From an uncultured Bacteroidales bacterium (GTDB lineage: Bacteria > Bacteroidota > Bacteroidia > Bacteroidales > WCHB1-69): 64,000 bases of DNA. Under the pieces are notes generated by a model. It was not told where the DNA came from. It did not search any database and worked only from the letters and a program-made list of their open reading frames with translations. Numbering within the stretch: position 1 is the stretch's first letter; every line of letters begins with the position of its first letter. Of the stretch, positions 3,403 to 60,661 are shown one piece after another. Position numbers and translations under genes: made by a program. Where the stretch lies: contig ONHS01000015.1 of assembly GCA_900317715.1 (NCBI GenBank), forward strand, positions 9,020-73,019, given 5' to 3'.

Positions 3403-4017
3403 ATGGAAAATGTGAATCGAAAATATTGGATTATGCTGGCCATGAGCATCTTGGCACTGATAGTCGTCATCTTATGGCCCACAAAGAAGCTGGAAAATGG
3501 ACCTACGGCTCCTGACAAAAACGAGATTTTAGGGATCCTTCAAGCACAGTCGCAGATTGCCACCACGGAAGTGACCATCCGCAAGATGGGCATTTATGAT
3601 TCCGAAACCCAAATCGCCTCCATGAATCCTGCCAAATGGAAACTCGGCAAACGCATGGCCGTGGTTCCCGTCGATGTGACCATCCGCTATGGCATCGACC
3701 TCAACGAGCTGAAAGAGAGCGACATCACTTTCATCGGCAAGGACTCCGTGCAAATTCGACTGCCTAAGCCGAAAATCATTGACAAATCCTTCAATCCCAT
3801 CACCAATCCGAACGAAATCGTGACCCTCTCCACCGGTTTGCGCGACAAGGTAGGCGAAACCACCATCCAGCAAATCAAGAACATGGCCTTCGAGGAGGTC
3901 ATCAACCAAGACAAGGAATTCCAAGCCAAACTCTCCGACGAGCTCTCCCACAACACCGAAACCGTCTTCACGTCTCTCCTCACCGCCATCGGACTACACC
4001 CGGTGTTTGTGAAATGA
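3403..4017 (+). CDS. Membrane-anchored DUF4230-like protein
   Basis: 204 aa, N-terminal TM helix; VVPVDVTIRYGIDLNELKESDI...VQIRLPKPKII layout as I recall for DUF4230. Confidence 0.55.
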   Translation: MENVNRKYWIMLAMSILALIVVILWPTKKLENGPTAPDKNEILGILQAQSQIATTEVTIRKMGIYDSETQIASMNPAKWKLGKRMAVVPVDVTIRYGIDLNELKESDITFIGKDSVQIRLPKPKIIDKSFNPITNPNEIVTLSTGLRDKVGETTIQQIKNMAFEEVINQDKEFQAKLSDELSHNTETVFTSLLTAIGLHPVFVK

Positions 4018-4217
4018 CGTGTGATGTGAGACGTAAGACGTAAGACGTAAGACGTGTGACGTATGACTTTAGACTTTGAACTTTGAACTTTGAACGATGA
4101 ACCTTGAACTTTGAACTATGGCCTGCTCCCTATTGCCTATTGCCTACTTCCTAAACCCTAAACCCTAAACTCTAAACTCTAAACCATAAACCATAAACCA
4201 TAAACCCTAAACTCTAA
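4018..4217. repeat. Heptanucleotide tandem array 1 (~29 units in one 7-nt register)
   Basis: Read in 7-nt steps from 4021: gagacgt aagacgt x3 gtgacgt atgactt tagactt tgaactt x2 tgaacga tgaacct tgaactt tgaacta ... ttgccta x2 cttccta aacccta x2 aactcta x2 aaccata x3 aacccta aactcta. Confidence 0.9.
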
Positions 4218-4224
4218 AAAAACA

Positions 4225-7360: not shown

Positions 7361-7432
7361 ATTCATCGTCCATTCATCGTTTTTCATCGTCCATTCATCG
7401 TCATTCATCGCCATTCATCGTTTTTCATCGCC
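7361..7432. repeat. Heptamer array 2 (CATCGNN/CATTCAT family)
   Basis: catcgtc cattcat cgttttt catcgtc cattcat cgtcatt catcgcc ...; 21-nt higher-order period; contains the stop of the nnr dehydratase frame. Confidence 0.85.
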
Positions 7433-8933
7433 AATATCCCATTGGAAAAGTATTCCGGCAAATCCGACGCGATGAGGGTGCGCGGGTCGTTGTCGCGCGC
7501 GTAGGCATCGCCGGCGGCGCCGTGCAGGAAAACGCCTAGCATGGCGGCGTGTTCGGGCGGGTAACCTTGCGCCAACAGGGAGAGAATCTGTCCGGTGAGC
7601 ACGTCGCCGCTGCCCGCCGTGGCCATGCCCGCATTGCCGGTGGTGTTGAAAAACTGCCGTCCGTCGGGAAGCGTGATGACCGTGTGGTGACCCTTCAGGA
7701 CAAGGATAACCGTATAGCGTTGGGCGAACTGTTTCGCACGCTCCAAACGGTCGAAGTCGTCGGAGGGCTTCCCAGCAAGACGCTCAAACTCAGCAAAATG
7801 CGGAGTCAGGATGCTATACGGCGGCAGGAACGCGAGCCACGTCTTGTTCTCCGCCAACATGTTCAGCGCATCGGCATCGATGACGAGCGGGGTCTTCACC
7901 GTATCCAGGATATCCTTCATCACCGCAACCGTCTGCTTTTGCGTCCCCAAGCCAGGACCCAATGCCACTGCATTGATATTCTCTGGCAGGGAGTTCCAAT
8001 CTATTCTACTGACATACTGTTCGTTATCATCAAGATGATGGATCGCTTCCGGAAGGGTGATGGCCAACGTCTGGCACACCGATTTTACGGAATGGACGGT
8101 CAGCTTGCCTATGCCGCCGCGCATGGCCGCCTTGGCCGCAAGCACCGCTGCACCAGGCATCCGGTCGCAGCCCGCCACGAGCAATCCATGTCCGAACGTC
8201 CCTTTGTGTGCATAGCGCGGACGTGGACGGAGCTGACGACGCATTCCATCGTTCTCCAACGTCATCCTCTCTATATTCTCCAGATTGTCAGATAATTCCA
8301 TACCAATATCCACCACTTCAAGTTCCCCAACATAACCACTGTTTTCCGGCAGGAGGAAGGCGGTTTTCTGGAATTGGATGCTCAGAACCTTGTCCGCGAT
8401 GACCACCGCGCTATGGTCAGGCGTATGCTGATCCGCGAAGAGTCCCGAAGGAAATTGATGTGTTGGATCACCTCCGCAAAGAATCCTGTAACGGGTTTGT
8501 TGAGTCCGATACCGAAAAGGGCATCCACAATAATGTCATCTTCTTTCTCTTCAGGCTGATTATCAGCCGTATAGTGTATAGTATGAGCGTTTTCGTATTG
8601 TTCGGAAACTTTCTGCCAGCGTTGCAGTTGATATTCCATTTCACTGCTATAACGGGCATTCTCCGGCGCACAAATCACGAGATGAACCTGATTGACAAGA
8701 TGGTGTTCCTCCAAAAGCTGGATAGCCATCACCACTCCATCGCCGCCGTTGTTACCTGTCCCGACATAGAAATAGACATCCTGAACATCGTACAACAAAA
8801 CATTATAATATAATGTTTCGGCGCAAGCGGCACCGGCCTGCTCCATCAACTGCAAGGAAGAGATACCCTGCTTCTGCATGGTAAATCTCTCGCATTCACG
8901 TATTTCCGAGACTTTTAGAATTGCATTTTCCAT
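7405..8933 (-). pseudogene. nnr: Bifunctional NAD(P)H-hydrate repair enzyme Nnr, split by frameshift plus small deletion
   Basis: 8382-8933 frame = YjeF_N epimerase (GTGNNGGDG); 7405-8406 frame = dehydratase (GSGDVLTG). Frames differ by 1 nt and ~11 residues expected before PSGLFAD are missing. Confidence 0.7.
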
Positions 8934-9095
8934 CTTTACAAGTTTACGATTTTGAGTGCGCAAAAATATAAAAAAAGCGGTGATTACCTAATGATTATAA
9001 AGCCTTTTCTTTCTATAAAAAACATTTTCCTATTCTAGCGCAACAAAATTTTTTAAAAAAAAATTTGGGGAAAAGCAACACATCTAAAAAAAATG

Positions 9096-12332: not shown

Positions 12333-12366
12333 AAAAATCCCGGGCCTTCGGTCCGGGATTTTTTTG
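12333..12366 (+). terminator. Intrinsic terminator
   Basis: aaaaatCCCGGGCCttcgGTCCGGGattttttt right after adhesin stop. Confidence 0.75.
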
Positions 12367-12370
12367 TATT

Positions 12371-12468
12371 CGTTTATCATCGAACAACATTCATCGAACA
12401 TCATTCATCGAACATCATTCATCGAACATCATTCATCGAACATCATTCATCGAACAATCCCAGGGCTC
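12371..12468. repeat. Heptamer array 3 (alternating CATCGAA/CATCATT, 14-nt unit x5)
   Basis: cgtttat catcgaa caacatt catcgaa catcatt (x4 more) in one register. Confidence 0.9.
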
Positions 12469-12517
12469 GCTTCGCTCACCCTGGGCTGACATAGGTCGGG
12501 CTTTCAGCCCTTTTTGG
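12469..12517. repeat. REP-like unit, left flank of Y1 transposase gene
   Basis: CCCAGGGctcgcttcgctcaCCCTGGGctgacataggtcGGGCTttcAGCCCtttttgg; reverse complement closely matches 13201-13260. Confidence 0.8.
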
Positions 12518-12730: not shown

Positions 12731-13237
12731 ATGGCACAGTCATTATCAAAAATTCTCGTACATGCCGTTTGGCACATCAAATACAACAGTCCAGAAATTC
12801 TCAATGAGGACAGAGTTGAACTATACCAATATCTGAATAATCTCTTCGACAAAAAAGGGTGCGCAACTCTTCAGATTAACGGTGTGGGCAACCACGTACA
12901 TGTATTATTTGCACTATCTAAAACCATATCTTTGGCAAAAGTGATGGAATCTATCAAATCAATCAGCAGCAAATGGTTGAAAACCAGAGGAAACCATTAT
13001 ACCGGATTCGCATGGCAACCTGGATACGGTGCCTTCTCCGTGAGCGAATCCGTCTGCCCCAAGACAAAACGATACATTGCACGCCAAGAGGAACATCATC
13101 AACAAATCACCCCTCATGATGAATACATCCAACTCCTCACCAAGAACAATGTTCCTTTCAACGAACAATACCTCTTCGATTCCCCCAACACCAACCTCTT
13201 CCAAAAAGGGCTGAAAGCCCGACCTATATCAACCTAG
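12731..13237 (+). CDS. IS200/IS605-like Y1 transposase, RAYT-type (no tnpB partner)
   Basis: MAQSLSKILVHAVW...; HxH motif NHVHVLF; GYGAFSVS Tyr region; last codons (FQKGLKARPIST) run into the right REP unit; ATG 12731 preferred over upstream alternative start. Confidence 0.75.
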   Translation: MAQSLSKILVHAVWHIKYNSPEILNEDRVELYQYLNNLFDKKGCATLQINGVGNHVHVLFALSKTISLAKVMESIKSISSKWLKTRGNHYTGFAWQPGYGAFSVSESVCPKTKRYIARQEEHHQQITPHDEYIQLLTKNNVPFNEQYLFDSPNTNLFQKGLKARPIST

Positions 13238-13376
13238 GGTGAACGCAGTGAGCCCTAGGGCACAGAAGGAATGCAATGAACTTTGGAATATAGGGACGCA
13301 GTGAGCCCTAGAAAACAGGAGTAACATAACACAACGCAGCGTACTCTGACCTAGGGTGAACGCAATGAGCACCAGG
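13201..13376. repeat. REP-like unit (right flank) plus two degenerate hairpin copies
   Basis: ccaaaaaGGGCTgaaAGCCCgacctatatcaaCCTAGGGtgaacgcagtgagCCCTAGGg; partial copies at 13291-13310 and 13350-13376. Confidence 0.75.
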
Positions 13377-16778: not shown

Positions 16779-17958
16779 TATATGTTTCCACTTTCAGATC
16801 AGTCAGCCGTACCGCCTGCGTACGTACCGCTTTTTTGATATCAATCAAAATCACAACTATTTTGATGATTATCAGAACCAATATCTGACAAAGCGTTTGG
16901 CAGAGCGCTGCTATCTGCCCACCAACAAGATGCTGTTGGATCTCATCAAGCGCGTCGGCAACAAATTCCGTTGCAGTTTCAGTATCTCGGGCAGCTCCAT
17001 CATGCTGTTCAAAAACTACTGTCCTGAAGTCATCGACAGCTTCAAGGAACTCATTGCTACGGGATGCGTGGAGATTACAGGCAGCACTCTCACTCACAGT
17101 ATTGCGTCTCTGTATAATGAAAGCGCATTCATGGAGCAAGTTCATTTGCAGGAAAAACTGCTGATGGAGACTTTCGGCGTGAAACCCATCTCTTTCTGCA
17201 ACACTGAGATCATCTACTCCGATGAAATGGGCGAATGGCTCGGCAATGCCGGCTACCGCGTCATCCTTACGGAGGGCGCACGCCACATCCTCGGTTGGAA
17301 GAGCCCCACTTACCTCTACTGCAACCCTTATCAGACGGATGTAAGACTGTTGCTGCGTTCCTACCAACTGTGCGATGACATCACATTGCGCTTCGCCGAC
17401 CAAGGGTGGGATCAGTACCCGCTGACCGCCGGCAAGTACATCCGCTTCCTGGAGAATATTAACACCGAGAGCGAATCGCCGCTCATCAATCTCTACTGGG
17501 ATTACGAAACCATCGGCGAGCATTATACGGCAGAAACAGGCATTTTCGATTTCTTCAGATCCTTGGTCACCGAACTGGAGTATCACGAAAACTACAAGTT
17601 CATCACGCCTAAGGATGTGTTAGACATGGATTTAAGTCCGGCAACGATGCACGCTCCGTGGCCCATTTCCTGCTCTGGCGAAGAGAAGGACACCCACGAA
17701 TGGCTCGGCAATGAACTGCAGCAAGAGGCTTTCAACCAATTATTCAAGTTGGAAGAACTCTATCAGAATTCTAAAAATGCCAATGCAAAACTAAGCTGGC
17801 TGCGTCTCCAAGCTGCCGACCACTTCAACTTCATGAGTTCCAAATGGTTCGGTCACCGCTTTGTGAAACGTAACTTCGAGGTTTATTCTTCACCCTATCA
17901 GGCGTTCATCAACTATATGAACGTGCTGAATGATGTGAAATTGCAGTTGGAAAGTTAG
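16771..17958 (+). CDS. Glycoside hydrolase family 57 (alpha-amylase-like)
   Basis: 395 aa; FHFQISQPYRLRTYRFFDI... GH57 N-terminal pattern; 8-nt overlap with GT4 gene; stop TAG lies in first GTTAGAC unit of array 4. Confidence 0.7.
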   Translation: MNNICFHFQISQPYRLRTYRFFDINQNHNYFDDYQNQYLTKRLAERCYLPTNKMLLDLIKRVGNKFRCSFSISGSSIMLFKNYCPEVIDSFKELIATGCVEITGSTLTHSIASLYNESAFMEQVHLQEKLLMETFGVKPISFCNTEIIYSDEMGEWLGNAGYRVILTEGARHILGWKSPTYLYCNPYQTDVRLLLRSYQLCDDITLRFADQGWDQYPLTAGKYIRFLENINTESESPLINLYWDYETIGEHYTAETGIFDFFRSLVTELEYHENYKFITPKDVLDMDLSPATMHAPWPISCSGEEKDTHEWLGNELQQEAFNQLFKLEELYQNSKNANAKLSWLRLQAADHFNFMSSKWFGHRFVKRNFEVYSSPYQAFINYMNVLNDVKLQLES

Positions 17959-18108
17959 ACGTTAGACGTTAGACGTTAGACGTAAGACGTGTGACGTGTG
18001 ACGTGTGACGTTTGATTTTTAATATTAGATTTTGTAATAATCTTTTGCTCAAGTCTTTACTCATACGTCATAAGTCATACGTCATAAGTCATACGTCATA
18101 AGTCAATC
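17954..18108. repeat. Heptamer array 4 with inverted arms
   Basis: gttagac x4 gtaagac gtgtgac x3 gtttgat ... (AT-rich centre) ... cgtcata agtcata x3; right arm is the complement family of the left arm, same 7-nt register throughout. Confidence 0.9.
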
Positions 18109-18113
18109 ATATT

Positions 18114-18728
18114 ATGCTGCTTGACAAATTACAAACCCATAAGGTCTATCTCGCCTCGCAATCTCCTCGCCGACGTGAACTGCTGGCGGGAATGGGGGTG
18201 GATTTTGAAGTCATCAAGACTGACGTGGAGGAAACCTACGACCCGTCGTGGAGTCCCGAACAGATTGTGATGCATCTCTCAAAGCTCAAACTGTCTCCCA
18301 TTGACATGAGCCTTTACAACCCATCCTCCATTTTCATCACCTGCGATACTATTGTGGTGATAAATGGCGAAATCACTGGTAAACCGAAGGACGAAGAGGA
18401 TGCCAAACGGATGTTACACGCACTGTCGGGCAACACACACACCGTTTATAGCGGCCTCACAGTGGCCACCCCCAAACTACAACTTACCGATTACCGCGCC
18501 ACGGATGTCGTTTTCGAAACATTGTCCGATGAAATGATACAATATTATATAGATCACTACCGTCCCTACGACAAGGCAGGCTCCTACGGCGTGCAGGAAT
18601 GGATTGGCCGCGTAGGCATCCGCGAAGTCCACGGCTCCTTCTACAACGTCATGGGCCTCCCCACGAGGTTGCTGTGGGTGCTTTTGGAGAAGATTTGTGA
18701 GAAGCGTGATTTGAACTTTGAACTTTGA
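18114..18728 (+). CDS. maf: Maf-like nucleoside-triphosphate pyrophosphatase
   Basis: 204 aa; LASQSPRRRELL and GSYGVQE motifs; last residues DLNFEL* encoded by array 5. Confidence 0.85.
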   Translation: MLLDKLQTHKVYLASQSPRRRELLAGMGVDFEVIKTDVEETYDPSWSPEQIVMHLSKLKLSPIDMSLYNPSSIFITCDTIVVINGEITGKPKDEEDAKRMLHALSGNTHTVYSGLTVATPKLQLTDYRATDVVFETLSDEMIQYYIDHYRPYDKAGSYGVQEWIGRVGIREVHGSFYNVMGLPTRLLWVLLEKICEKRDLNFEL

Positions 18729-18780
18729 ACTTTGAACTTTGAACTTTGAACTTTGAACTTTGACTTTGACTTTGAACTTT
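18710..18780. repeat. Heptamer array 5 (TTGAACT x7 + variants)
   Basis: Seven perfect ttgaact units from 18711, then ttgact x2, ttgaact; provides maf stop codon. Confidence 0.95.
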
Positions 18781-18805
18781 GCTGCTGGTCACTAACCGTC
18801 AACCA

Positions 18806-23154: not shown

Positions 23155-23189
23155 TTTATTTCTTGTTTTTTGTTTGTTTTTATTTTGAT

Positions 23190-23325
23190 GTTTGACGTAA
23201 GACGTTTGACTTGTGAATTGTGATTCGAGACTTGAGATCATCGAAATCTTATGAGATTTTAATTATGATCAAAAATCACACATCACACGTCATAAATCAT
23301 ACGTCATACGTCGCACGTCATACAT
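23190..23325. repeat. Heptamer array 6 with inverted arms, between iorA and iorB
   Basis: gtttgac gtaagac gtttgac ttgtgaa ttgtgat tcgagac ttgagat ... aatcaca catcaca cgtcata aatcata cgtcata cgtcgca cgtcata; ~19.5 units in one register. Confidence 0.9.
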
Positions 23326-24933
23326 CTATTTCTTCGCAGCCTGTTGTTTTTTCATTCTGCGGCTGAGGGTCTGGATACATTCGCGGGTCGGGATGATCAC
23401 GGAAACGCCTTGGTATTCAAGCTCTTTCTCGATGATGGCCACGTTTTCTTCCAGATGACCCTTCAGCGGGTTGATGCGGTGGATGTGGTCTTCCTTCACG
23501 CCGAGGCCCTTGCAGATTTCGCCAAGGACACCGAGGGCGTGGGAATCCTGACCGCCGGTCATACCAGTGGTGCTGTTGTCGAGAATCAACACCGTGATGG
23601 GGGTGTTCTCGTAGATGGCATCCAACAGGGAGGTCATACCGCTGTGGGTGAAGGTGGAGTCGCCGATGACTGCCACGCACGGGCTGAGGCCAGCGTCAGC
23701 AGCACCCTTGGCCATGGTGATGGAAGCACCCATATCGACCGTGGTGTAGATGGCGTTGTAAGGAGGAAGCGCACCGAGGGTGTAGCAACCGATGTCGGAG
23801 AAGACTTTGCCCTTGCCGTGTTTCTCCATCGCCTTGTTGAGGGCGGTATAGGAGTCGATGTGCGGGCAACCCACGCACAATGCGGGCGGACGCGGAACAA
23901 CCAGTTCCGGGACGGGTGCGCCGTAGGTGTCGGGCAGACCGAGGGCCTTGGCCACGAGGTTCGGGTTGAGTTCGCCGTCGCGAGGCAGTTCGCCGCTCAA
24001 ACGACCCATGATGTTGCCGGTGCGGTTCAGCACGCCACGGACTTGCTCTTCGATGAAAGGATAACCCTCTTCGGCGATGAGCACCTTGCCACATTCGTCA
24101 ATCATCTTGGCGATGAGCTTGGTAGGCAGCGGGTATTGGGAAATCTTCAACACAGGATAAGGACATTTGCCGCCTTCGAAATTCTCCATCAGGTAGTTGT
24201 ATGCGATACCGGAAGCGATGATACCCATGCTCTTGTCGGCACCGTCGATGTATTTGTTGAACGGAGAATTGAGAGAATCGTTCTCGAATTCAGGTTGCTT
24301 GTCCAACAGCTTGCGATAGTGCTTGCGAGCGTTGGCGGGCAGCAGGATGAATTGTTTCGGGTCTTTCTCGATGTTGAGCGGGTTTTGCGGACGCTCAGCT
24401 TTGCGTTCCACGCCAGAACGGGAGTGGGAAAGACGGGTGGTGAGGCGGATCAACACGGGGGTGCGGAATTTCTCGGACATCTCGAACGCATAGTAGGTGA
24501 TGTCGTAAGCCTCTTGTTGGTTGGAGGGCTCGAAGCACGGGATGAGGGCGAACTTCGCATAGTAGCGGGAGTCTTGCTCGTCTTGTGAGGAGTGCATGGA
24601 GGGGTCGTCGGCGACCACCACCACGAGACCGCCGTTAGCGCCGGTGATGGAAGAGTTCATGAAGGGGTCGGCAGCCACGTTGAGGCCGACGTGTTTCATG
24701 CAGACCATCGCGCGTTTGCCCGCGTAGGACATGCCGATAGCAGACTCCATAGCGGTTTTCTCGTTGCCAGCCCAGATGCTGTGCACCTCGCCAGCCTTGC
24801 CTTGCTTGGAGTTCTGGATAAATTCGGTAATTTCAGTGGAAGGAGTGCCCGGATAGGCATACACTCCGGATAATCCGGCATCCAAAGCGGCCTGAGCCAC
24901 CGCCTCGTCGCCTAAAAACAATGCTTTTGACAT
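23326..24933 (-). CDS. iorA: Indolepyruvate:ferredoxin oxidoreductase alpha subunit
   Basis: 535 aa TPP enzyme; GDSTFTHSG TPP motif, CVGCPH cluster region. Confidence 0.85.
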   Translation of the reverse strand: MSKALFLGDEAVAQAALDAGLSGVYAYPGTPSTEITEFIQNSKQGKAGEVHSIWAGNEKTAMESAIGMSYAGKRAMVCMKHVGLNVAADPFMNSSITGANGGLVVVVADDPSMHSSQDEQDSRYYAKFALIPCFEPSNQQEAYDITYYAFEMSEKFRTPVLIRLTTRLSHSRSGVERKAERPQNPLNIEKDPKQFILLPANARKHYRKLLDKQPEFENDSLNSPFNKYIDGADKSMGIIASGIAYNYLMENFEGGKCPYPVLKISQYPLPTKLIAKMIDECGKVLIAEEGYPFIEEQVRGVLNRTGNIMGRLSGELPRDGELNPNLVAKALGLPDTYGAPVPELVVPRPPALCVGCPHIDSYTALNKAMEKHGKGKVFSDIGCYTLGALPPYNAIYTTVDMGASITMAKGAADAGLSPCVAVIGDSTFTHSGMTSLLDAIYENTPITVLILDNSTTGMTGGQDSHALGVLGEICKGLGVKEDHIHRINPLKGHLEENVAIIEKELEYQGVSVIIPTRECIQTLSRRMKKQQAAKK

Positions 24934-29917: not shown

Positions 29918-30115
29918 GAGCGAGGGTCGAGGGTCGAGGGTCAAGGGTCAAGGCAATAGGCAATAGGGAGTAGGGAATAGGCAAGTTTCAGGTTTCAGGT
30001 TTCAAGTTTCTGGTTTCAAGTTATAAGTTTTAGGTCTAAGTCTAAATCTAAGTCTAAATCATAAGTCATAAATCTTACGTCATAAGTCAAAAGCTAACAG
30101 CTAAAACCAACAGTC
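29918..30115. repeat. Heptamer array 7 (same block vocabulary as arrays 1/10, opposite orientation)
   Basis: ggtcgag x2 ggtcaag x2 gcaatag x2 ggagtag ggaatag ... tcaggtt x2 tcaagtt ... gtcataa ... gctaaca; ~29 units, short 6-nt patch in the middle. Confidence 0.9.
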
Positions 30116-31261: not shown

Positions 31262-33784
31262 ATGGATATCAAATATTCGGAAGAGATGAACTATATTTTG
31301 GCGGAATCCAACGAATTGGCCAAAGTATATCACTCGCAACAAATTGGATTAGAACATCTTATGGTGTGTCTCCTCCGCTATCCCGGGGAGAGTGTCACCA
31401 AGAAGATTTTCAACATATTTCAGATTGATTTGAATGGAATGCGCACGCGCTTGGAACAGATGCTGGAGATGCCTGACAGTCAGGCTGACAACCCCGAAGC
31501 CAAGATTCCCATCAGCGTGCAAGCGCAAGGAAGGCTGCATCTATCTTACTTATTCTCAAAGCAATACAGAAGCGATGTGGTAGAATCTTACCACTTGGTG
31601 TTGGCCATTCTGAAACCTGCTCAACTCGACAGCCAGAACACCATCAAGGTGATGCTGGCTCAGGCGGGTCTCAACTTCCAGACCTTTGAAGACGAGCTGC
31701 GTCATGAGCTCCATCTTGCCGAACCGACTGCCGCCGCGCATCAGATGATGGGCGACGATGACGACGAAGATAACGACCGCCGCACAGGGATGAAAAAGAG
31801 GAAAGAGGGCGGCAAATCCGCCACCCCGATGCTCGACAGCTTTGGCAAGGATTTGACCAAGATGGCCGCCGAGGGCAAGATTGACCCTGTGGTAGGCCGA
31901 CAAAAAGAGTTGGAGCGCATCGCCCAGATTTTATGTCGCCGCAAAAAGAACAATCCTGTGCTGATTGGCGAGCCTGGTGTCGGTAAATCCGCTTTGGCTG
32001 AGGGACTTGCGTTGCAGATTTCTTCTGGTCACGTGTCGCGCACGCTCATGCATAAGCGCATAGTCAGCCTTGACATGGCTGGACTTGTGGCAGGCACCAA
32101 ATACCGCGGACAGTTCGAGGAGCGCGTGAAAACCATCCTCGAAGAACTGGAGAAAAACACCGATGTCATCCTCTTCATCGACGAGCTGCACACGATGGTA
32201 GGCGCTGGTAACGCGCCCGGCAGCATGGATGCCTCCAACCTCTTCAAACCCGCATTGGCCCGTGGCGAACTGCAATGTATCGGCGCCACCACGTTGGACG
32301 AATACCGCGAGCACATCGAAAAGGATGGTGCGCTGGAACGTCGTTTCCAGAAAATCATCCTCGAGCCCGCCACGCCCGAAGAGACCCTTGACATCCTCAA
32401 CAACATCAAGGACAAATACGAAGAGCACCACGCCGTGAAATACAACGACGAAGCCATCAAGGCTTGCGTAGCCATGTCAAATCGCTATATATCAGACCGT
32501 TGCCTCCCCGACAAAGCTATCGATGTGATGGACGAAGCGGGTGCGCGTTTGCATATCCAAAACATCCACGTTCCCGAAGAATTGTTGGCAGCAGAGGCCG
32601 CCATCGAGGAACAGGAGAAGCTGAAAGTGGAGGCGATTCGCAACCAACAATACAACGAGGCCGCCAAATACCGCGACCAGATCAAGATGCTGGAGGAAGA
32701 GCGACAGATGATTCAGAAAACGTGGGAAAACAGCGTGAACGAAAACCGTCCCGATGTTACGGAAGACACTGTGGCAGAAGTAATTGCCATGATGACAGGC
32801 GTACCCGTGCAACGTATCGCCAAGAACGAAGGTGAGCGTCTGATGCGCATGGCCACCGAACTGCAAGGGGTTGTCATTGGGCAGGACGAACCTGTGGTGA
32901 AGATTGCCAAGGCCATCCGCCGGAACCGCGCCGGTCTGAAGGATCCCAACAAGCCCATCGGAACATTCATCTTCCTTGGACCTACAGGTGTGGGCAAGAC
33001 CTATTTGGCGAAAGTATTGGCCGAGTATCTCTTTGATTCTCAAGATGCTATCATCCGCATCGATATGAGCGAATATATGGAGAAGCACACTGTGTCAAGA
33101 CTCATCGGTGCGCCTCCGGGATATGTAGGCTACGAAGAGGGCGGTCAACTCACCGAGAAAGTGCGCCGCAAACCCTACTCTATCGTGCTGCTGGATGAAA
33201 TCGAGAAAGCTCACCACGACGTGTATAACGTTCTGCTTCAGGTGTTTGACGAGGGTCAGCTCACCGACGGTATGGGTCGCAAGGTCGATTTCAAGAACAC
33301 CATCATCATCATGACCTCCAACGTGGGCACGCGCGAGCTGAAGGACTTCGGCACAGGCATGGGCTTCAGTACCGAAGCCACCAAGTCGGCGGAGCAGAAG
33401 GTGGCGCAGGGCATCCTCGAAAAGGCCCTCAAAACAACCTTCGCGCCTGAATTCCTCAACCGCGTGGACGATGTCATCTACTTCAACAGTCTTGACAAAG
33501 AGGATATTGGCAAGATCATCGACATCGAGTTGAAGAAGGTGTTGCAGCGCGTCAAGGATTTGGACGTGGACATCCGCATCACCGAAAAGGCGAAGAACTT
33601 CCTCGTGGAAAACGGCTGGGATGCCAACTACGGTGCCCGCCCGCTGAAACGCACCATCCAAAAGTACGTCGAAGACGTCCTCGCCGAGGAAATCCTCAAC
33701 ATGACGCTTGTCTCCGGCGACTCCGTCGAACTCGACTACGACGAGCTGAAAGAAGAGATGCTGGTATCCCATGTTAATTCATAA
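31262..33784 (+). CDS. clpC: ATP-dependent Clp protease ATP-binding subunit ClpC
   Basis: 840 aa; Clp_N repeats, two AAA+ modules ([16 protein letters not shown]), UVR-like linker; last codons HVNS* lie in array 8. Confidence 0.9.
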
Positions 33785-33810
33785 TTCATAATTCACAATT
33801 CATAATTATT
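33776..33810. repeat. Heptamer array 8 (AATTCAT family)
   Basis: aattcat aattcat aattcac aattcat aattatt. Confidence 0.85.
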
Positions 33811-33816
33811 CCACGA

Positions 33817-33870
33817 GAGCTGAAAGCCCGACACGTGTCAACCTAGGGTGAGCGATAGCGAGCCCTAGGA
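33817..33870. repeat. REP-like unit (same family as 13201-13260)
   Basis: gaGCTgaaAGCccgacacgtgtcaaCCTAGGGtgagcgatagcgagCCCTAGGa. Confidence 0.75.
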
Positions 33871-34405: not shown

Positions 34406-34409
34406 TTTT

Positions 34410-34502
34410 GTTTAAGGTTTAGAGTTTAATAATATTCCCAAAAATCATAAATCATAAACCACAAACCATAAACCTTAAACTATAAACCATAAACCTTAAA
34501 CC
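34410..34502. repeat. Heptamer array 9 (TAAACC family with short inverted left arm)
   Basis: gtttaaggtttagagtttaa ... tcataaa x2 ccacaaa ccataaa ccttaaa ctataaa ccataaa ccttaaa. Confidence 0.85.
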
Positions 34503-34503
34503 A

Positions 34504-35394: not shown

Positions 35395-35546
35395 CGGTTG
35401 GCTGTTAGCTATTGGCTGTTGACTGTTGACTATGAACTTTGAACTATGAACTTTGAACTATGAACTTTGACACAGACTATTCCCTACTCCCTTAAACCAT
35501 AAACTATAAACCTTAAACCATAAACCCTAAACTATAAACTCTAAAC
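35395..35546. repeat. Heptamer array 10 (22 units in one register)
   Basis: gctgtta gctattg gctgttg actgttg actatga actttga x... cacagac tattccc tactccc ttaaacc ataaact ataaacc ... Confidence 0.9.
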
Positions 35547-40560: not shown

Positions 40561-40572
40561 CATTACAACCAT

Positions 40573-40607
40573 CATTCATAATTCATAATTCTTAATTCTT
40601 AATTCCC
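40573..40607. repeat. Heptamer array 11 (AATTCAT/AATTCTT)
   Basis: cattcat aattcat aattctt aattctt aattccc; supplies ...EEGIKN* and stop of the minus-strand gene. Confidence 0.8.
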
Positions 40608-41477: not shown

Positions 41478-44279
41478 CTACCTCAACGTTGAGGTCAAAC
41501 GCCAACGCCCACTGCCGTATGTCTTTACATCATAGCCGTTTGCGGTGGGCAGCCAAACCTCAGCGGTGGTGTTCGCGGGAATGACAATCTCCCACTCGAA
41601 TTGGTCGCCGTCGCGTTTCCACGAGCTTTGGATGTCGCCGGAAACGGATTTGTACGTACAGTTTACGTAATCCAAACCCTCAATGGGATAAGGTTTCAGC
41701 TGAATTCTACGGTAACCCGGTTCCAAGGCACGGATGCCAGCGAGGTACTCGTACTCCCACAGGATCAGGTCGCCGAGGAGCATCACGTGGTTGCCGGAAT
41801 TCATCGACGGGTCGGCGGTGTTGCCGTTCCACAGCTCCCAGATGGTGGTCGCGCCGTTGCGCACCATGTATCCCCAACTCGGGTAGGTGTCGTTAGTGGC
41901 GAGTTTCAGCGCGAGGTCGCCACGACCGTAATCCGTGAGCGTGCGCATCAGCTGCTGGATGCCCACCACGCCACAGGAGACGTGCCCGCCGAAATCGTTT
42001 TCTGTCTTGTTGACAATATTATCAAAAACATACTTTTCCCACGTCGTCGGTACCATGCCGAAAGCCAAGGGCAGAATGTTGGCCGTGACGCTGCCGTTCT
42101 CATAGTTGGCGGTTCCAGCGTCAAAATTCAGGCCGTTGTAGGCGTTGGCGGAGAAATTCGCGTCAAAACGGAACTGTTCCGCATCCTCCGGCAAGTCTAA
42201 AAGATCTGCAAACCGGGCCATGATTTGACACAGATAGCAGTAAAACGGGGTTGAGATAGCCGCCCCGTAAGTGTTTCTCAGGATATCTTTCGAGTGAATC
42301 AGCTCTGGCGACTCCGGCGGCACGCACCAGTCCCCGTAACAGTCGCGGGTGATGATGCCGTCTTCGCCGTAAGTGTTGGCCATGTGTTCTATCCAGCGTT
42401 TCATCGCGGGATAGTGTTTTCGAATACCCTCAATATCCCCATAACGGGTGTAGAGCATGTCAGCCACGGTGATGAACGCGCCCGGCCAGGTCATGTTGTC
42501 GGTGTAACGCCGCCAGTACGCCGGACAAACATCCGACAGCGAGCCATTTTCCCATTGGCTGTCTTCAATGTCGGCCAGCCATTTGCTGTAGAGCAGGTGG
42601 TTGTCGAAAATGTACGACTCCCCGTAGCAACCCGTGGTGTGATCGCCGGTCCAGCCCATCCGTTCATCGCGCTGCGGACAGTCGGTGGGCATCGAGCGGT
42701 AATTGCCCCGGATACCCCAATAAGCATTATGATACACCTTGTTGATTATCTCGTCAGAGCACTCGAAATGCCCTGTCGTCCCCATTCTGTCATACAGCAC
42801 CAGCCCGAACGTGTAATTCAAGTCGGGTGCCTCTCGCAATCCGGAAATCTCCACATAGCGGAAGCCGTGATAGACAAATTCTGGCTTCCACGCCACATTA
42901 TGAATTGTGAATTCTGAATTATGAATTACATACCTGTCCGTGGCTTCGGCCGCACGAAGATTATCCACAAAAAGCAAGCCATCCGGATTGAGGGTCTCGG
43001 CAAAACGCAATGTGATGGTATCGCCTGATTGCATTCCATTCGCCTGTATGGCAAAAGCACCTACCATATTCTGTCCCATATCGACCATCCACTTGTCACC
43101 TCTTTGATATATTCTTTCAGGCATCACCCATTCTTGACATGCAATATTGGGGTTGGGTTGCGGCACCAACTGGCCTCCTGGAGCATCCACAAGCACAGCT
43201 TTTTCCCACGAAGAGTCATCATAGTTTGGTTCCAGCCATTTCCCAAGGGCGTAATTCTCATCGTATGTCTCGCCATCAAACTCATTGGAGGTGCGGATGG
43301 GACCTCGGTTGGTGATATGCCAGCTTTCGTCGCTGATGATGCGTTCTTGGGTGCCGTCCTTATAGGTGATTTCGAGTTGCAGAATCATGCGCGGTGCCCC
43401 GAAGTGCATGATGTGCGTGAGGCCGCCCCATTCTTCCTCTTCTTTGTTGTAGCGCATGGTCATGTAACGCCCGCCCGCAAGGGTGATACCGATGGCGTTT
43501 CCCTTGCCTGCACGCAAGAGATCCGTCACATCGTAGGCGTTGAAATAGACCCGTTTGCGATAATCGGAGAGCGCAGGCTTGAACCAATCTTTTTCCCCGA
43601 TCGTCCGTCCGTTGAGACCAATACTATATTGTCCCAAACCGCAGACATAGAGCCGTGCCTCTCGCACCTTCTTTTTCAGCGTGAACTCTTTGCGGAGGTA
43701 GCGCGCCGCAAGACGGGTTTTCTGAATCAGGGTGTCGTCATCATAGTCGTAGCCAATCCATTTCGCACTCCAATCATCCTGATTCAACAAGCTGATTTCA
43801 AATGAGTTGACATCACTCTCGTTGAAAGCGATCCGTGTTACGGGCTCCATTGTCGTTTGTACATATTCCCCGTCTCGATAGTGTTTCACCATGCCCGTAT
43901 CCTTGTACGTTATTGAGGTAATCACCTTCCAATAAGCCTTGTCGCGGCTGTGCAGGGGTTGACCACCGTATGGGATGTAGAGCATCTGGTCAGATGGGAT
44001 GGTGCCGGAATCCCAGAGATCGCCCTTTTTATTGCGGGCATTTTCTTCAGTGGAAGCCACTATAATGCGATAGGAGGTCTGCCGCTCGTCAAAAGTATTC
44101 CCATATCGGTACAAGGTTGTATCGGTTACATAGTTCCAGCTGAACCTCGGCTGGTCGGTGGCCAGCGGTTGCGAACCGTCTTGCATTTCAACCGTAGGGT
44201 TGGCGATTCTCACCTGCGCAACGGCGTTCCCGAAGGCTAACAACGCCAAAAAAAGGAGTATCAGAGGGTTACTTTTCAT
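41478..44279 (-). CDS. Alpha-L-rhamnosidase (GH78)
   Basis: 933 aa; signal peptide; GH78 N-domain, HGFRYVEI, (alpha/alpha)6 catalytic region; -7 box at 44310-44317. Confidence 0.8.
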   Translation of the reverse strand: MKSNPLILLFLALLAFGNAVAQVRIANPTVEMQDGSQPLATDQPRFSWNYVTDTTLYRYGNTFDERQTSYRIIVASTEENARNKKGDLWDSGTIPSDQMLYIPYGGQPLHSRDKAYWKVITSITYKDTGMVKHYRDGEYVQTTMEPVTRIAFNESDVNSFEISLLNQDDWSAKWIGYDYDDDTLIQKTRLAARYLRKEFTLKKKVREARLYVCGLGQYSIGLNGRTIGEKDWFKPALSDYRKRVYFNAYDVTDLLRAGKGNAIGITLAGGRYMTMRYNKEEEEWGGLTHIMHFGAPRMILQLEITYKDGTQERIISDESWHITNRGPIRTSNEFDGETYDENYALGKWLEPNYDDSSWEKAVLVDAPGGQLVPQPNPNIACQEWVMPERIYQRGDKWMVDMGQNMVGAFAIQANGMQSGDTITLRFAETLNPDGLLFVDNLRAAEATDRYVIHNSEFTIHNVAWKPEFVYHGFRYVEISGLREAPDLNYTFGLVLYDRMGTTGHFECSDEIINKVYHNAYWGIRGNYRSMPTDCPQRDERMGWTGDHTTGCYGESYIFDNHLLYSKWLADIEDSQWENGSLSDVCPAYWRRYTDNMTWPGAFITVADMLYTRYGDIEGIRKHYPAMKRWIEHMANTYGEDGIITRDCYGDWCVPPESPELIHSKDILRNTYGAAISTPFYCYLCQIMARFADLLDLPEDAEQFRFDANFSANAYNGLNFDAGTANYENGSVTANILPLAFGMVPTTWEKYVFDNIVNKTENDFGGHVSCGVVGIQQLMRTLTDYGRGDLALKLATNDTYPSWGYMVRNGATTIWELWNGNTADPSMNSGNHVMLLGDLILWEYEYLAGIRALEPGYRRIQLKPYPIEGLDYVNCTYKSVSGDIQSSWKRDGDQFEWEIVIPANTTAEVWLPTANGYDVKTYGSGRWRLTSTLR
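42897..42929 (-). repeat. Heptamer array 12 embedded in-frame in GH78 ORF
   Basis: Coding strand aattcat aattcag aattcac aattcat aat = 1 mismatch to intergenic array 8; encodes VIHNSEFTIHN. Confidence 0.75.
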
Positions 44280-48637: not shown

Positions 48638-48733
48638 TGTTCATCGTTTTTCATCGTCTATTCATCGTATCATCGTATCATCACATCATCATATCATCGC
48701 ATCATCGTCCCATTCATCGTCCCATTCATCGTC
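48638..48733. repeat. Heptamer array 13 (CATCGNN family; register drifts 7-8 nt)
   Basis: ttcatcg tttttcatcg tctattcatcg tatcatcg tatcatca catcatca tatcatcg catcatcg tcccattcatcg x2. Confidence 0.8.
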
Positions 48734-48891: not shown

Positions 48892-49647
48892 ATGGAAACA
48901 AATATGCAATCCCCCCGTAGGGGCGTATCGCATACGCCCCAAGCGCATACGCCCCAAACACATACATTTCACCACCGCCGTAGTATCAGATTAAAAGGAT
49001 ATGATTATTCCGCCGATGGATTGTATTTCATCACCATTTGCACAAAAGAGAGAAATCATTATTTCGGTCGAGTCATTGATGGCAAAATGGTTTTGAATGA
49101 AAGGGGGCAAATCGTAAAAAACGAATGGTTAAATACCATCAACGTAAGAAAAGACGAGGTGATCCTTCATGAATATATCGTTATGCCCAATCATTTTCAT
49201 GCCATTATCGAAATTTGCCGTAGGGGCGTATCGCATACGCCCCAAATACATACGCCGCAATCACATACGCCGCAATCACATACGCCGCAATCACATACGC
49301 CGCAATCACATACGCCGCAATCACATACGCCCGACGACGGCCTAACAACATCAGATAGAGGCGTATGCGATACAATTGATAGGGGCGTATGCGATACAAT
49401 TGACAGGGGCGTATGCGATACAATTGACAGGGGCGTATGCGATACGCCCCTACGGTCACCGTCAAAAACGTTGGGGTCAATTATTCGGGGATTCAAATCC
49501 GCCGTGACAAAACAAATCGGATTTCCGGTATGGCAACGAAATTATCATGAACACATAATCCGAAACACAAACGCATTTACAAAAATCTCAAATTACATCC
49601 TAAATAATCCCGCACAATGGCACTGTGACATGTTCAACAACGGTTGA
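48892..49647 (+). CDS. RAYT-type Y1 transposase (IS200-like) with internal REP/tandem-repeat insert
   Basis: RSIRLKGYDYSADGLYFITICT..., HxH motif MPNHFHAIIEI, C-terminal LGSIIRGFKSAVT...WQRNYHEHIIR Tyr motif; 238-bp repeat block between the two halves stays in frame. Confidence 0.8.
   Translation: METNMQSPRRGVSHTPQAHTPQTHTFHHRRSIRLKGYDYSADGLYFITICTKERNHYFGRVIDGKMVLNERGQIVKNEWLNTINVRKDEVILHEYIVMPNHFHAIIEICRRGVSHTPQIHTPQSHTPQSHTPQSHTPQSHTPQSHTPDDGLTTSDRGVCDTIDRGVCDTIDRGVCDTIDRGVCDTPLRSPSKTLGSIIRGFKSAVTKQIGFPVWQRNYHEHIIRNTNAFTKISNYILNNPAQWHCDMFNNG
49218..49455. repeat. Inverted REP pair with 15-bp (x~5.7) and 24-bp (x~3.9) tandem repeats inside the transposase ORF
   Basis: ccGTAGGGGCGTATcgcATACGCCCC (49218-49243) ... 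(tcacatacgccgcaa)n ... (gataggggcgtatgcgatacaatt)n ... GGGGCGTATgcgATACGCCCCTACgg (ends 49455). Confidence 0.9.
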
Positions 49648-54649: not shown

Positions 54650-54705
54650 TCAAGACGTGAGACGTGAGACGTGTGACGTTTGACGTTTGACGTTTGACGT
54701 AGGAC
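54650..54705. repeat. Heptamer array 14 (GTNNGAC x8)
   Basis: tcaagac gtgagac x2 gtgtgac gtttgac x3 gtaggac. Confidence 0.9.
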
Positions 54706-54711
54706 TATACG

Positions 54712-54746
54712 AATGTAGGGACGCCACAATGTGACGTCCCTACATT
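54712..54746. repeat. GTAG-headed REP-like hairpin
   Basis: AATGTAGGGACGccacaatgtgaCGTCCCTACATT. Confidence 0.85.
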
Positions 54747-59487: not shown

Positions 59488-60633
59488 ATGTTAGAATTTT
59501 TCAAAGAAGGATTATTGCAATTCCTGAGCTATTCCGGTTTCGGAAACTGCACCTGGGGACATATCATCATGATATGTATCGGCTTGGTGTTCATAGCTTT
59601 GGGAATTATCAAGGAATATGAGCCGCTGTTGCTCGTGCCCATCGGCTTCGGTATCATCATCGGTAACATCCCGTTCACCGATGGTCTGCAAGTGGGTGTG
59701 TATGAGAACGGTGCCGTGCTCAACTACCTCTATTTCGGTGTGGTGAAAGGTTTCTATCCGCCATTGATCTTCCTCGGCATCGGAGCCATGACAGACTTCT
59801 CGGCCCTGATTTCCAACCCGAAATTGATTCTCATCGGTGCAGCCGCCCAGTTCGGTATCTTCGCCGCTTACATCACTGCCTTGTTGCTGGGCTTCACCCC
59901 CATGGAGGCTGGTGCTATCGGTATCATCGGTGGTGCTGACGGTCCTACCGCCATCTTCATCTCGTCCAAGTTGGCTCCGAGCATGATGGGTGCTATTGCT
60001 GTGTCGGCATACTCTTACATGGCTTTGGTGCCGGTGATCCAACCGCCTATCATGCGCGCACTGACCACCCCGCAAGAGCGCCTCATCCGCATGCGCCCGC
60101 CTCGTGCCGTCAGCCATCGCGAAAAAGTGCTCTTCCCGATGATGTGTATCCTGCTCACCGCCTTCCTCGTGCCTACGGGTCTGCCGTTGTTGGGTATGCT
60201 CTTCTTCGGTAACCTGTTGAAAGAGAGCGGCGTGACGAAACGTCTGGCCAACACCGCATCGGGTCCGCTGGTCGATATCGTGACTATCCTCATCGGTCTG
60301 ACCGTCGGTTGTTCCACGCAGGCTACCAACTTCCTGAGACCTGCCTCTGTGCTCATCTTCATCTTGGGTGCCTTCTCCTTCGTGATCGCCACCGCTTCCG
60401 GTGTGCTGTTCGTGAAGTTCTTCAACCTCTTCCTGAAGGGCGACAATAAGATCAACCCGCTCATCGGTAACGCCGGTGTCTCCGCCGTGCCTGATGCAGC
60501 GCGTGTCTCCCTGGTGGAAGGTCAGAAATACGACCGCACCAACTTCCTGCTCATGCACGCTATGGGTCCGAACGTGGCCGGCGTCATCGGCAGTGCAGTG
60601 GCCGCAGGTATCTTGTTGAGCTTCTTGTATTAA
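59488..60633 (+). CDS. mmdB: Na+-translocating decarboxylase beta subunit
   Basis: 381-aa polytopic OadB/MmdB-type protein; stop TAA is in first unit of array 15. Confidence 0.85.
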   Translation: MLEFFKEGLLQFLSYSGFGNCTWGHIIMICIGLVFIALGIIKEYEPLLLVPIGFGIIIGNIPFTDGLQVGVYENGAVLNYLYFGVVKGFYPPLIFLGIGAMTDFSALISNPKLILIGAAAQFGIFAAYITALLLGFTPMEAGAIGIIGGADGPTAIFISSKLAPSMMGAIAVSAYSYMALVPVIQPPIMRALTTPQERLIRMRPPRAVSHREKVLFPMMCILLTAFLVPTGLPLLGMLFFGNLLKESGVTKRLANTASGPLVDIVTILIGLTVGCSTQATNFLRPASVLIFILGAFSFVIATASGVLFVKFFNLFLKGDNKINPLIGNAGVSAVPDAARVSLVEGQKYDRTNFLLMHAMGPNVAGVIGSAVAAGILLSFLY

Positions 60634-60661
60634 GACGTGTGATGTGTGACGTTAGTATGAC
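60630..60661. repeat. Heptamer array 15 (short GTNNGAC run)
   Basis: ttaagac gtgtgat gtgtgac gttagta tgac. Confidence 0.7.

Follow-up and report, generated by a model that had tools for sequence, protein, structure and literature searches.

The window analyzed here is a stretch of 64,000 nucleotides (64 kb) of DNA from an uncultured rumen or gut Bacteroidales lineage that is known only from metagenome-assembled genomes (MAGs). Part of its intergenic spacers is filled by tandem arrays of 7-nt units (heptamers), and one of these, the composite array at positions 4018-4217, had been flagged by an original prediction made on this DNA. We find that the arrays belong to a known class of repeats, the heptanucleotide simple sequence repeats (SSRs), of which they are an unusually dense instance and not a new kind of element. 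The flagged array is an active slippage-type variable number tandem repeat (VNTR) and not an assembly artefact. The arrays are probably hypervariable filler generated by slippage, which would be transcribed together with the neighbouring genes and, close to start codons, filtered for translation initiation that does without a Shine-Dalgarno sequence.

The flagged array and its length polymorphism

The flagged array separates two tandem DUF4230 genes, as judged from the Pfam matches of the flanking genes. The stop codon of the upstream gene (TGA, 4015-4017) lies within the first unit, and the array ends 7 nt upstream of the ATG at 4225. Its block order is GACGT-type > GACTT > GAACTT > CCTAYTS > CCTAAAC/CCATAAA, with the units drifting from AGACGTA/TGACGTG over TGACTTT, GAACTTT and CCTATTG to CCTAAAC/CCATAAA; the single register of 29 units and the stepwise drift are as originally described (Table 1). 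The (CCCTAAA)n block at 4150-4218 is, on the opposite strand, the plant-type telomere repeat (TTTAGGG)n.

We compared the window with other assemblies of the same species. Relative to those that are at least 99.5% identical to it (L081-L083, L086 and L096), intergenic indels are confined to arrays, and their lengths are all multiples of 7. L081 carries 14 additional bp at 33775 in the (TAATTCA) array, lacks 21 bp at 34463 in the CCATAAA/CCTTAAA array and has 7 additional bp at 40574 in the (CATAATT) array. A loss of 14 bp at 35520, in the second composite, is common to L081, L082 and L083, and L096 lacks 28 bp at 12388 in the period-14 array and 14 bp at 18061 in the 3' arm of the hairpin at 17954-18108. 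Outside arrays this set differs by one indel alone, of 31 nt in coding sequence at 8454. In the more diverged conspecific assemblies L087-L089 (approximately 180 substitutions per 10.8 kb), positions 719-768 and 9049 hold a few further indels of 1-2 nt that do not belong to arrays.

The flagged spacer was followed through ten independent assemblies of the same species and occurs in six length classes (164, 186, 192, 199, 207 and 220 nt). Whole units are gained or lost independently in each block and the block order stays constant; the only length change other than by multiples of 7 concerns one A in the terminal A-run. Such whole-unit length classes across independent assemblies identify the array as a VNTR and rule out an artefact. 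The slippage-prone microsatellite, one of the origins that the original prediction had left open, receives direct support from this polymorphism. The genes of the window are found in many independent metagenome assemblies with 99.5-100% nucleotide identity, and the arrays, for which an assembly artefact had been feared, likewise occur in many of them.

Period-7 excess in the window and in other Bacteroidales

Arrays in the window were detected with Tandem Repeats Finder (TRF) and with a sliding self-match scan. In the scan period 7 accounts for 12 regions with 848 bp, compared to 48 bp for period 8, 41 bp for period 10 and 0 bp for periods 4-6, 9 and 11-13; the signal at period 14 is a mere multiple of 7. 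TRF reports period-7 arrays with 4.6-11.4 copies at more than 12 sites. Both methods recover the arrays where the original prediction had placed them, and TRF reports period 7 at nearly all of its coordinates. Its estimate of about 2% of the window also agrees with the curated set, which sums to 1315 bp (2.05%) and takes up approximately 16% of the intergenic DNA, with 13 of the 39 spacers of at least 30 nt carrying an array.

The arrays had further been described as non-coding. This is right for the greater part, as 424 of 4335 array bases fall inside called open reading frames (ORFs) and approximately 90% are intergenic, but several arrays begin at or before the upstream stop codon, and the supposed spacer array at 42897-42929 is rhamnosidase coding sequence without an indel relative to the orthologue in the sister species L003. 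It was dropped from the array set. A few of the listed heptamer arrays have to be corrected in kind: those at 7361-7432 and 48638-48733 really repeat a TCATCG core at periods of 8-12 nt, the one given as 12371-12468 has, at 12377-12456, a period of 14 made of two alternating heptamers, and the one at 60630-60661 is present, but short and degenerate. The arrays are not of the type of clustered regularly interspaced short palindromic repeats (CRISPR), as had been stated, since the 7-nt units in the window are contiguous and without spacers. A scan of the window at the Rfam gathering thresholds placed no family on the arrays and gave only two Acido-Lenti-1 matches, both outside them; no tRNAs were detected in the window.

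To see the window in a wider context, 1.41 Mb of loci from approximately 75 Bacteroidales genomes were scanned. Period 7 accounts for 113 arrays with 4873 bp, and every other period that is not a multiple of it for at most 19 arrays and less than 1 kb; shuffled sequences give approximately none. The period-7 excess, on which the original prediction depended, is present in the window and in these 1.4 Mb of Bacteroidales DNA alike. Carriers of arrays include Butyricimonas, Muribaculaceae, Prevotellaceae and Marinifilum, each with units of its own; most are simple, with one or two unit types, and lineage-specific. Period-7 arrays are hence not special to the lineage of the window but found in many Bacteroidales families. 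A metagenome scan with (CCTAYTS)2.5 points in the same direction: among the matches listed are contigs of 32-72% GC from soil, peat, freshwater, marine and gut samples, often with pairs of the form (GGGARTA)n-loop-(CCTAYTC)n, which indicates generality and is no measure of an enrichment of that unit.

Relation between the composites and turnover of orthologous spacers

The original prediction held that the block vocabulary of the flagged array recurs in the same order at 35395-35546 and, inverted, at 29918-30115. The three stretches, the last one as its reverse complement, indeed align collinearly with a mean column identity of 57% and a common block order GYTGTTR > GACGT/GACTT > GAACTT/GAAACY > CCTAYTS > CCTAAAC/ACCCT. 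Two of the composites have the exact 16-mer CTATTCCCTACTCCCT in common, for which 8 matches with at most three mismatches were found vs 0.24 expected. In L003 one spacer carries the composite block order of the window. Judged from these alignments, the long composites either are related copies or were formed under one and the same positional process, and are not independent random births.

The second composite lies between the TerB-DnaJ stop codon and a conserved promoter and 5'-untranslated region (5'-UTR) block of kamA. This block with TTTTGTACTTTTGC...ATCAATATG is conserved in the window, in L001 and in L003, and its core also in L005; it includes a TAnnTTTG-like motif, which matches the Bacteroidetes -7 promoter consensus. 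With its 152 bp the composite stands as an extra block after the stop codon and ahead of the conserved sequence. L003 lacks it, and L001 has in its place three copies of a 28-nt palindrome. This palindromic repeat (GAGACGCAAAATTTTGCGTCTCTACAC, L001 positions 2160-2237) stands at the exact position of the window composite, indicating that one spacer slot can be taken by different repeat types in sister species.

In the spacer between the HAD and TerB genes the window, L001 and L003 all carry heptamer arrays, with differing units, and over three orthologous spacers no array units are common to the three. The close relative L002 has no arrays in 21 kb. The comparison of orthologous spacers, which had been proposed as a check, thus finds arrays present, absent or replaced beside a conserved kamA block. 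As these absences and replacements affect orthologous sites, the arrays appear to be dispensable and to turn over quickly.

Polarity of the arrays and avoidance of start codons

For the analysis of strand polarity, arrays in co-directional spacers were grouped by the gene end they abut. Arrays that abut the downstream start have base frequencies of 0.51 for A, 0.17 for C and 0.07 for G, with less G than C in 17 of 17 untied cases. Arrays that abut the upstream stop have 0.235 G and 0.08 C, with more G than C in 24 of 25. The G content differs between both groups with p = 3.6e-7 (Mann-Whitney U test). Array-free spacers, taken as background, show G vs C counts of 109:81 and 81:108. With looser criteria, G is rarer than C in 29 of 33 start-proximal arrays and more frequent in 29 of 37 untied stop-proximal ones, and in an independent cross-phylum set the stop-proximal excess of G over C amounts to 24:4 in co-directional and 18:6 in convergent spacers.

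None of the 19 start-proximal arrays contains an ATG. NTG triplets occur 0.11 times per 35 nt in these arrays vs 1.07 times in ordinary leaders (p = 4e-5) and 2.2 times in stop-proximal arrays. Initiation regions of Bacteroidetes have been reported to make no use of Shine-Dalgarno sequences, to have little structure and to be depleted of AUG near the start (PMC6847099). The traits of the start-proximal arrays are an exaggerated form of these rules. The polarity from G to C known from Xanthomonas and Nostoc heptamers also holds across Bacteroidales, where it takes the form of A-rich, G-poor and ATG-free arrays at starts.

The layout "G-rich, then C-rich" is invariant under reverse complementation, so that the inverted composite at 29918 still follows the polarity rule: read on the sense (+) strand, its G-rich part (CGAGGGT) comes before the G-poor one. 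The CGAGGGT block holds, just past a stop codon on that strand, the sole canonical G-quadruplex (G4) motif of the window (G3N4 x 4, 29924-29947). We also considered that the arrays might provide a strand-specific "backstop" of stop codons in all three frames. This was rejected, as 40 of 59 arrays have it in sense and 40 of 59 in antisense direction, although both are above random segments.

RNA structure of array-bearing spacers

The array-bearing spacers show a bimodal distribution, of which hairpins formed by inverted pairs make up one part and linear arrays without structure the other. In the hairpins the stop codon marks the beginning of the 5' arm, and between the 3' arm and the start codon stands an A-rich repeat tail that is unpaired. 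The spacer at 17959-18113 has a predicted energy of -55.5 kcal/mol (z = -5.75) and that at 23180-23330 on the - strand of -50.1 kcal/mol (z = -5.46), with 0 of 200 shuffles as stable in either case; the inverted pair at 34409-34503 folds as a hairpin with z = -5.9. Like hairpins occur in loci of further genomes (L001, L022, L035, L052, L058, L066, L067 and L068). The statement that the arrays are not hairpin-forming repetitive extragenic palindromic (REP) elements therefore needs to be divided. The denial of hairpins is wrong for the arrays at 17954-18108, 23187-23326 and 34409-34503, whose inverted pairs fold into long ones. In a comparison with REP elements and bacterial interspersed mosaic elements (BIMEs), the heptamer units were found not to be palindromes, and the flagged array to be without structure beyond chance.

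The linear composites, the flagged array included, are unstructured. The flagged array folds no better than its dinucleotide shuffles (z = -0.48), and its 3' approximately 95 nt are unpaired in the centroid structure. With mononucleotide shuffles z shifts to +2.4; as the value depends on the type of shuffle, we speak of no structure beyond chance and not of an "anti-structured" array. A general effect of arrays on structure was considered and rejected: with mononucleotide shuffles the median z is -2.09 for array-bearing and -2.25 for array-free spacers (p = 0.79). The array hairpins are followed by A-rich tails and by no U-tract, and are not canonical terminators. Together with the position of some hairpins inside obvious operons this disfavors the RNA 3'-end element that had been offered as a further option.

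Further arrays and neighbouring features

The arrays of the window are collected in Table 1. The stop codons of four upstream genes lie within the first array units (4015-4017, 17956-17958, 18705-18728 and 7405-7407), so that arrays have extended into the 3' ends of genes or taken their place. At 17954 the codon concerned is a TAG. In the case of maf, the stop codon (18726-18728) and the last approximately six codons are TGAACTT-array sequence (18705-18728), and on the - strand the array at 7361-7432 supplies the stop codon of a YjeF-like gene and precedes the start of a thioredoxin-like gene. Elsewhere many stop-proximal arrays begin 1-22 nt ahead of the called stop codon.

Table 1. Tandem arrays of the window, with strand and context.
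Feature	Position	Strand	Context
Composite heptamer array, ~29 units in one register	4018-4217	+	found by TRF and self-match scan
Second composite, GYTGTTR > GAACTWT > CTATTCCCTACTCCC > TAAACCN	35397-35546	+	
Third composite, inverted vs the other two	29918-30115	-	fills spacer from esterase gene to gene for 338 aa
Inverted pair of GACGT-type arrays	17954-18108	+	GTTAGAC/GTGTGAC units, loop, GTCATAC/GTCATAA units; GH57-maf spacer
(TTTGAAC) x 10.6	18710-18781	+	convergent spacer
Inverted pair of GACGT-type arrays	23187-23326	-	between two 2-oxoacid:ferredoxin oxidoreductase subunit genes, inside operon
Short GTTTARG arm and long G-free CCATAAA/CCTTAAA array	34409-34503	+	HAD to TerB-DnaJ spacer, flush with ATG at 34504
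(TAATTCA) x 4.7	33775-33807	+	right after clpB stop codon, beside REP-like hairpin element
(CATAATT) x 5	40570-40605	+	31-nt convergent spacer
(AGACGTG)3(TGACGTT)3	54653-54700	+	past stop codon, convergent spacer
(TCATCGA ACATCAT) x 5.7, period 14, two alternating heptamers	12377-12456	+	between intrinsic-terminator-like hairpin and REP-like element
TCATCG-core array, period 10-11, not heptameric	7361-7432	-	
TCATCG-core array, variable period 8, 11 and 12	48640-48733	+	divergent spacer; related to arrays at 7361 and 12377
~4 GACGT/GATGT units, degenerate	60630-60661	+	just past stop codon

The arrays at 7361-7432, 12377-12456 and 48640-48733 form a family in which a TCATCG(T/A) core is kept and the period changes between 8, 10-11, 12 and 14 nt. 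This family looks more like a spaced motif array than like slippage of a single unit.

A gene for a Y1 or IS200-like transposase (12731-13237; Pfam PF01797, E = 3e-23) is bracketed by inverted copies of an approximately 53-nt hairpin (12459-12511 on the + and 13207-13259 on the - strand), which carry the Rfam label Acido-Lenti-1 RNA. A third, solo copy is located at approximately 33815-33870, and two of the three copies directly adjoin heptamer-type arrays. The resemblance to systems of REP elements with their associated tyrosine transposases (RAYT) suggests that the small RNA named by Rfam may here be a REP-like DNA element.

At 8454 (ORFs 7405-8406 and 8382-8963, - strand) the other conspecific assemblies compared (L086-L089, four of four) have 31 extra bases and encode a single YjeF_N/carbohydrate-kinase protein of 519 aa. 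The gene split into two ORFs in the window is either a frameshifted pseudogene or an error of the source assembly. Tandem repeats of 15 bp (6.8 copies) and 24 bp (3.6 copies) at 49230-49445 fall within an ORF of 251 aa without Pfam match (48892-49647), and since both periods are multiples of three they are probably protein-coding; L003 shows weak similarity to this region. In the convergent spacer with the GACGT array at 54653 the array is followed by a hairpin with a 12-bp stem (AATGTAGGGACG...CGTCCCTACATT, 54706-54745) and no U-tract. Canonical terminators with GC-rich stem and U-tract are present separately in the window, e.g. at 12340-12365 and approximately 60700.

Proposed mechanism and alternative explanations

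A mechanism in line with these results would start with replication slippage or unequal recombination, by which arrays arise and are resized by one 7-nt unit per step. An array could grow within its intergenic spacer until it reaches functional sequence, be it the stop codon upstream, the start codon downstream or a promoter. Point mutations would create new unit variants, and their local amplification would lead to blocks and to the graded appearance in a constant register. The arrays would be transcribed as part of intergenic mRNA, often within operons, where a strand-specific filter may act: units closer than approximately 35 nt to a start would survive only if they resemble an initiation region, being Shine-Dalgarno-independent, A-rich, G-poor, unstructured and free of spurious AUG, GUG or UUG, and units beside stop codons would be rich in G/U and poor in C. 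Whether as a composite or as an inverted pair, an array with the G-rich part before the C-rich one would satisfy this polarity in either orientation. Two architectures could result: one is a linear linker without structure, of which the flagged array is an example, the other a hairpin from stop to start with an unpaired A-rich tail.

One must keep in mind several points that weigh against this explanation. Slippage with a filter does not by itself explain why three dispersed composites have the same block order and a common 16-mer, nor why stop-proximal arrays are C-poor, and both the transcription of the arrays and their effect on translation are what we infer for this uncultured lineage. Within Bacteroidales the polarity in convergent spacers is weak (7:4, a small sample). 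The gene calls behind the polarity counts were crude (longest ATG-started ORFs, greedy selection), the effective sample is below the raw counts because L052, L066 and L067 include orthologous loci, and the start-proximal arrays were drawn from 10 source loci. All assemblies are short-read metagenome assemblies that may miscount repeat units; this concern is softened by the array length of less than 220 bp and by identical alleles that were found again in independent samples. That the arrays as such are an assembly artefact or due to chance has practically no probability left, for more than 15 independent assemblies, which differ in sample and pipeline, contain these same arrays, identical alleles recur among them, and shuffled sequences hold approximately no period-7 arrays.

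With these reservations, filler shaped by slippage and a filter at the start codon has to be compared with readings that give the arrays a role of their own. They could be selected regulatory modules, i.e. evolvable intercistronic RNA elements that tune expression in each strain like a rheostat: the G-free, AUG-free, A/C-rich tail would be the ribosome landing site for Shine-Dalgarno-less initiation of the downstream gene, the G/U-rich arm at the stop would form a hairpin that couples or insulates cistrons or stabilizes processed mRNA, and slippage would allow reversible tuning of the operon. This would fit hairpin arms flush with the stop and unpaired A-rich tails before the start in many lineages, a polarity and ATG avoidance beyond that of ordinary leaders, the position of some arrays in clear operons (the oxidoreductase subunit genes, the DUF4230 paralogues) and the translational regulation proposed by MacGregor 2015 (PMC4679880) for TAACTGA upstream of starts. 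We still regard such modules as rather unlikely, given that orthologous spacers of sister species are without the array or hold a replacement (none in 21 kb of L002), that the copy number varies freely between strains and independently in the two arms of a hairpin, that array-bearing spacers are overall no more structured than array-free ones, and that no regulatory effect was found for Xanthomonas heptamers (Rehm 2015, PMC4692102). Unlikely, too, is a dispersed composite of approximately 150-200 bp that is mobile or gene-converted, for whose copying transposition, a Y1/RAYT-type enzyme or recombination between arrays could be responsible, with slippage as a secondary process. No terminal inverted repeats or target-site duplications were seen by eye at the ends of the composites, identity is low outside the central block (57% on average over all columns), most other Bacteroidales arrays consist of simple, lineage-specific units, and the same gradient of positional selection could also give the common order. 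What speaks for copying is that this order is found in three composites of the window, one of them inverted, and in one of L003, with the exact 16-mer in two, that the window contains a Y1 transposase with flanking REP-like hairpins, that arrays adjoin two of the three REP-like copies, and that near-identical assemblages occur at two Elizabethkingia loci (MacGregor 2015, PMC4679880). The comparison of the three copies and the contrast between a filled and an empty kamA spacer in different species bear on mobility as well.

Binding of a protein appears improbable, although heptamers could serve as sites for a cold-shock-domain protein, for S1 or for a nucleoid protein. CspB binds approximately 7 nt per monomer, S1, Csp and CsrA were named as binders by MacGregor 2015 (PMC4679880), and the TCATCG core, which is kept while its spacing shifts between 8 and 14 nt, is reminiscent of a motif array; the high diversity of units within the genome and between lineages argues against one specific binder, no gene was found to co-occur with the arrays, and their copy number is unconstrained. 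For transcription terminators or RNA 3'-end elements one could point to the many arrays that begin at a stop codon and to the subset of strong hairpins. Those hairpins end in A-rich instead of U-rich tails, some arrays stand between subunit genes of one enzyme, the flagged array and the other composites are unstructured, and GC-stem terminators with U-tract exist separately in the window, which makes this function very improbable.

Heptamer SSRs have been known since 1990 (short tandemly repeated repetitive sequences, STRR) and 2007 (genome surveys) and are still without an accepted function. The lineage of the window represents an extreme case, with about one sixth of its intergenic DNA in heptamer arrays and six length classes of one spacer in ten assemblies, and its A-rich, G-poor, ATG-free start arrays link heptamer repeats to Shine-Dalgarno-independent initiation. 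Being natural VNTR markers, the arrays lend themselves to typing strains of uncultured rumen Bacteroidales, and assemblies from short reads are likely to break at them. Gene callers let ORFs run on into them, and the mimicry of plant telomeres by (CCCTAAA)n could lead to false flags of eukaryotic contamination. Cultured carriers, e.g. Butyricimonas synergistica DSM 23225, for which six arrays were counted in 21 kb (L022), make a possible function testable.

Comparison with known heptamer repeats

According to the papers that cite it (PMC4679880, PMC4692102), Mrazek 2007 found heptanucleotides to be the commonest long SSRs in prokaryotes and proposed polymerase slippage. The arrays reported here agree with these long SSRs in that 7-nt units are repeated in tandem with the period that dominates among long SSRs, mostly between genes and with varying length. 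They differ, as far as the account in the citing papers goes, where Bacteroidales are not highlighted, in that graded composites of several blocks fill whole spacers and make up ~16% of the DNA between genes. Bacteroidetes appear in Mrazek and Huang 2014 (PMC4060949) only as a table column.

For the heptamers of Xanthomonas and Nostoc (GGGAATC and GGGGAYT), Rehm 2015 (PMC4692102) reported intergenic bias, strand polarity, inverted pairs, transcription and variability between relatives. Like these, the arrays here are ~90% intergenic, frequently form inverted pairs, are rare between divergent genes and differ in length and sequence between close relatives with no function found, and they follow the same polarity rule (the G-rich strand is the coding one downstream of ORFs and the non-coding one upstream). 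Unlike them, they mostly consist of units without G tracts, with only the block at 29924-29947 being G4-capable, and combine several unrelated unit types per array; near the starts they are A-rich and free of G, in keeping with a phylum that makes no use of Shine-Dalgarno sequences. The window contains no GGGAATC units.

The original prediction knew of no described equivalent in Bacteroidales. This has to be revised, as heptamer repeats between genes, along with "larger assemblages of heptamer repeats", are on record for five Bacteroidetes, one of which, Paludibacter, belongs to the Bacteroidales (MacGregor 2015, PMC4679880). In that study, which also deals with Beggiatoaceae and Cyanobacteria, TAACTGA arrays lie upstream of start codons and orthologous spacers of relatives are without them, near-identical assemblages were noted at two Elizabethkingia loci, and S1, Csp and CsrA were suggested as binders in a proposed translational regulation. 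The arrays of the window are likewise intergenic, often located directly upstream of starts in "forward" orientation and missing from the orthologous spacers of relatives, and mixed assemblages of heptamers are known from Gramella, Aequorivita and Elizabethkingia too (PMC4679880). They differ from that set in their unit vocabulary, a far higher density and a rumen Bacteroidales host known from MAGs only. No TAACTGA dimer occurs in the window; L003 carries the near variant CTAACTG/CTAACTA. In the literature we found no catalogued Bacteroidales-specific heptamer family beyond that of MacGregor 2015, and no paper on these arrays in rumen Bacteroidales.

Repetitive intergenic DNA of another kind is formed by REP/BIME elements and by BrickBuilt of P. 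gingivalis. A subset of the arrays, the intercistronic hairpins, is similar to them; unlike in REP/BIME, the stems are made from short tandem units and not from one palindromic unit. BrickBuilt is said to be a minisatellite inside a transposable element of the miniature inverted-repeat kind (MITE) whose units are not heptamers, and no MITE ends were seen at the composites of the window.

The original prediction saw the closest analogue in the STRR, and more broadly the heptanucleotide SSRs, and this analogy is right in kind. The STRR units of heterocystous cyanobacteria, reportedly given by Mazel et al. in 1990, are CCCCAGT, TTGGTCA and CAACAGT; no dimer of them occurs on either strand of the window. 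As with the cyanobacterial STRR, dispersed families of non-coding tandem heptamers with several unit types are found in one genome. Phylum and units differ, so that the resemblance is one of kind and not of sequence. With tandem 7-nt units, an excess of period 7, variation of the unit number and a non-coding bias, the arrays show the features by which the heptanucleotide SSR class is defined.

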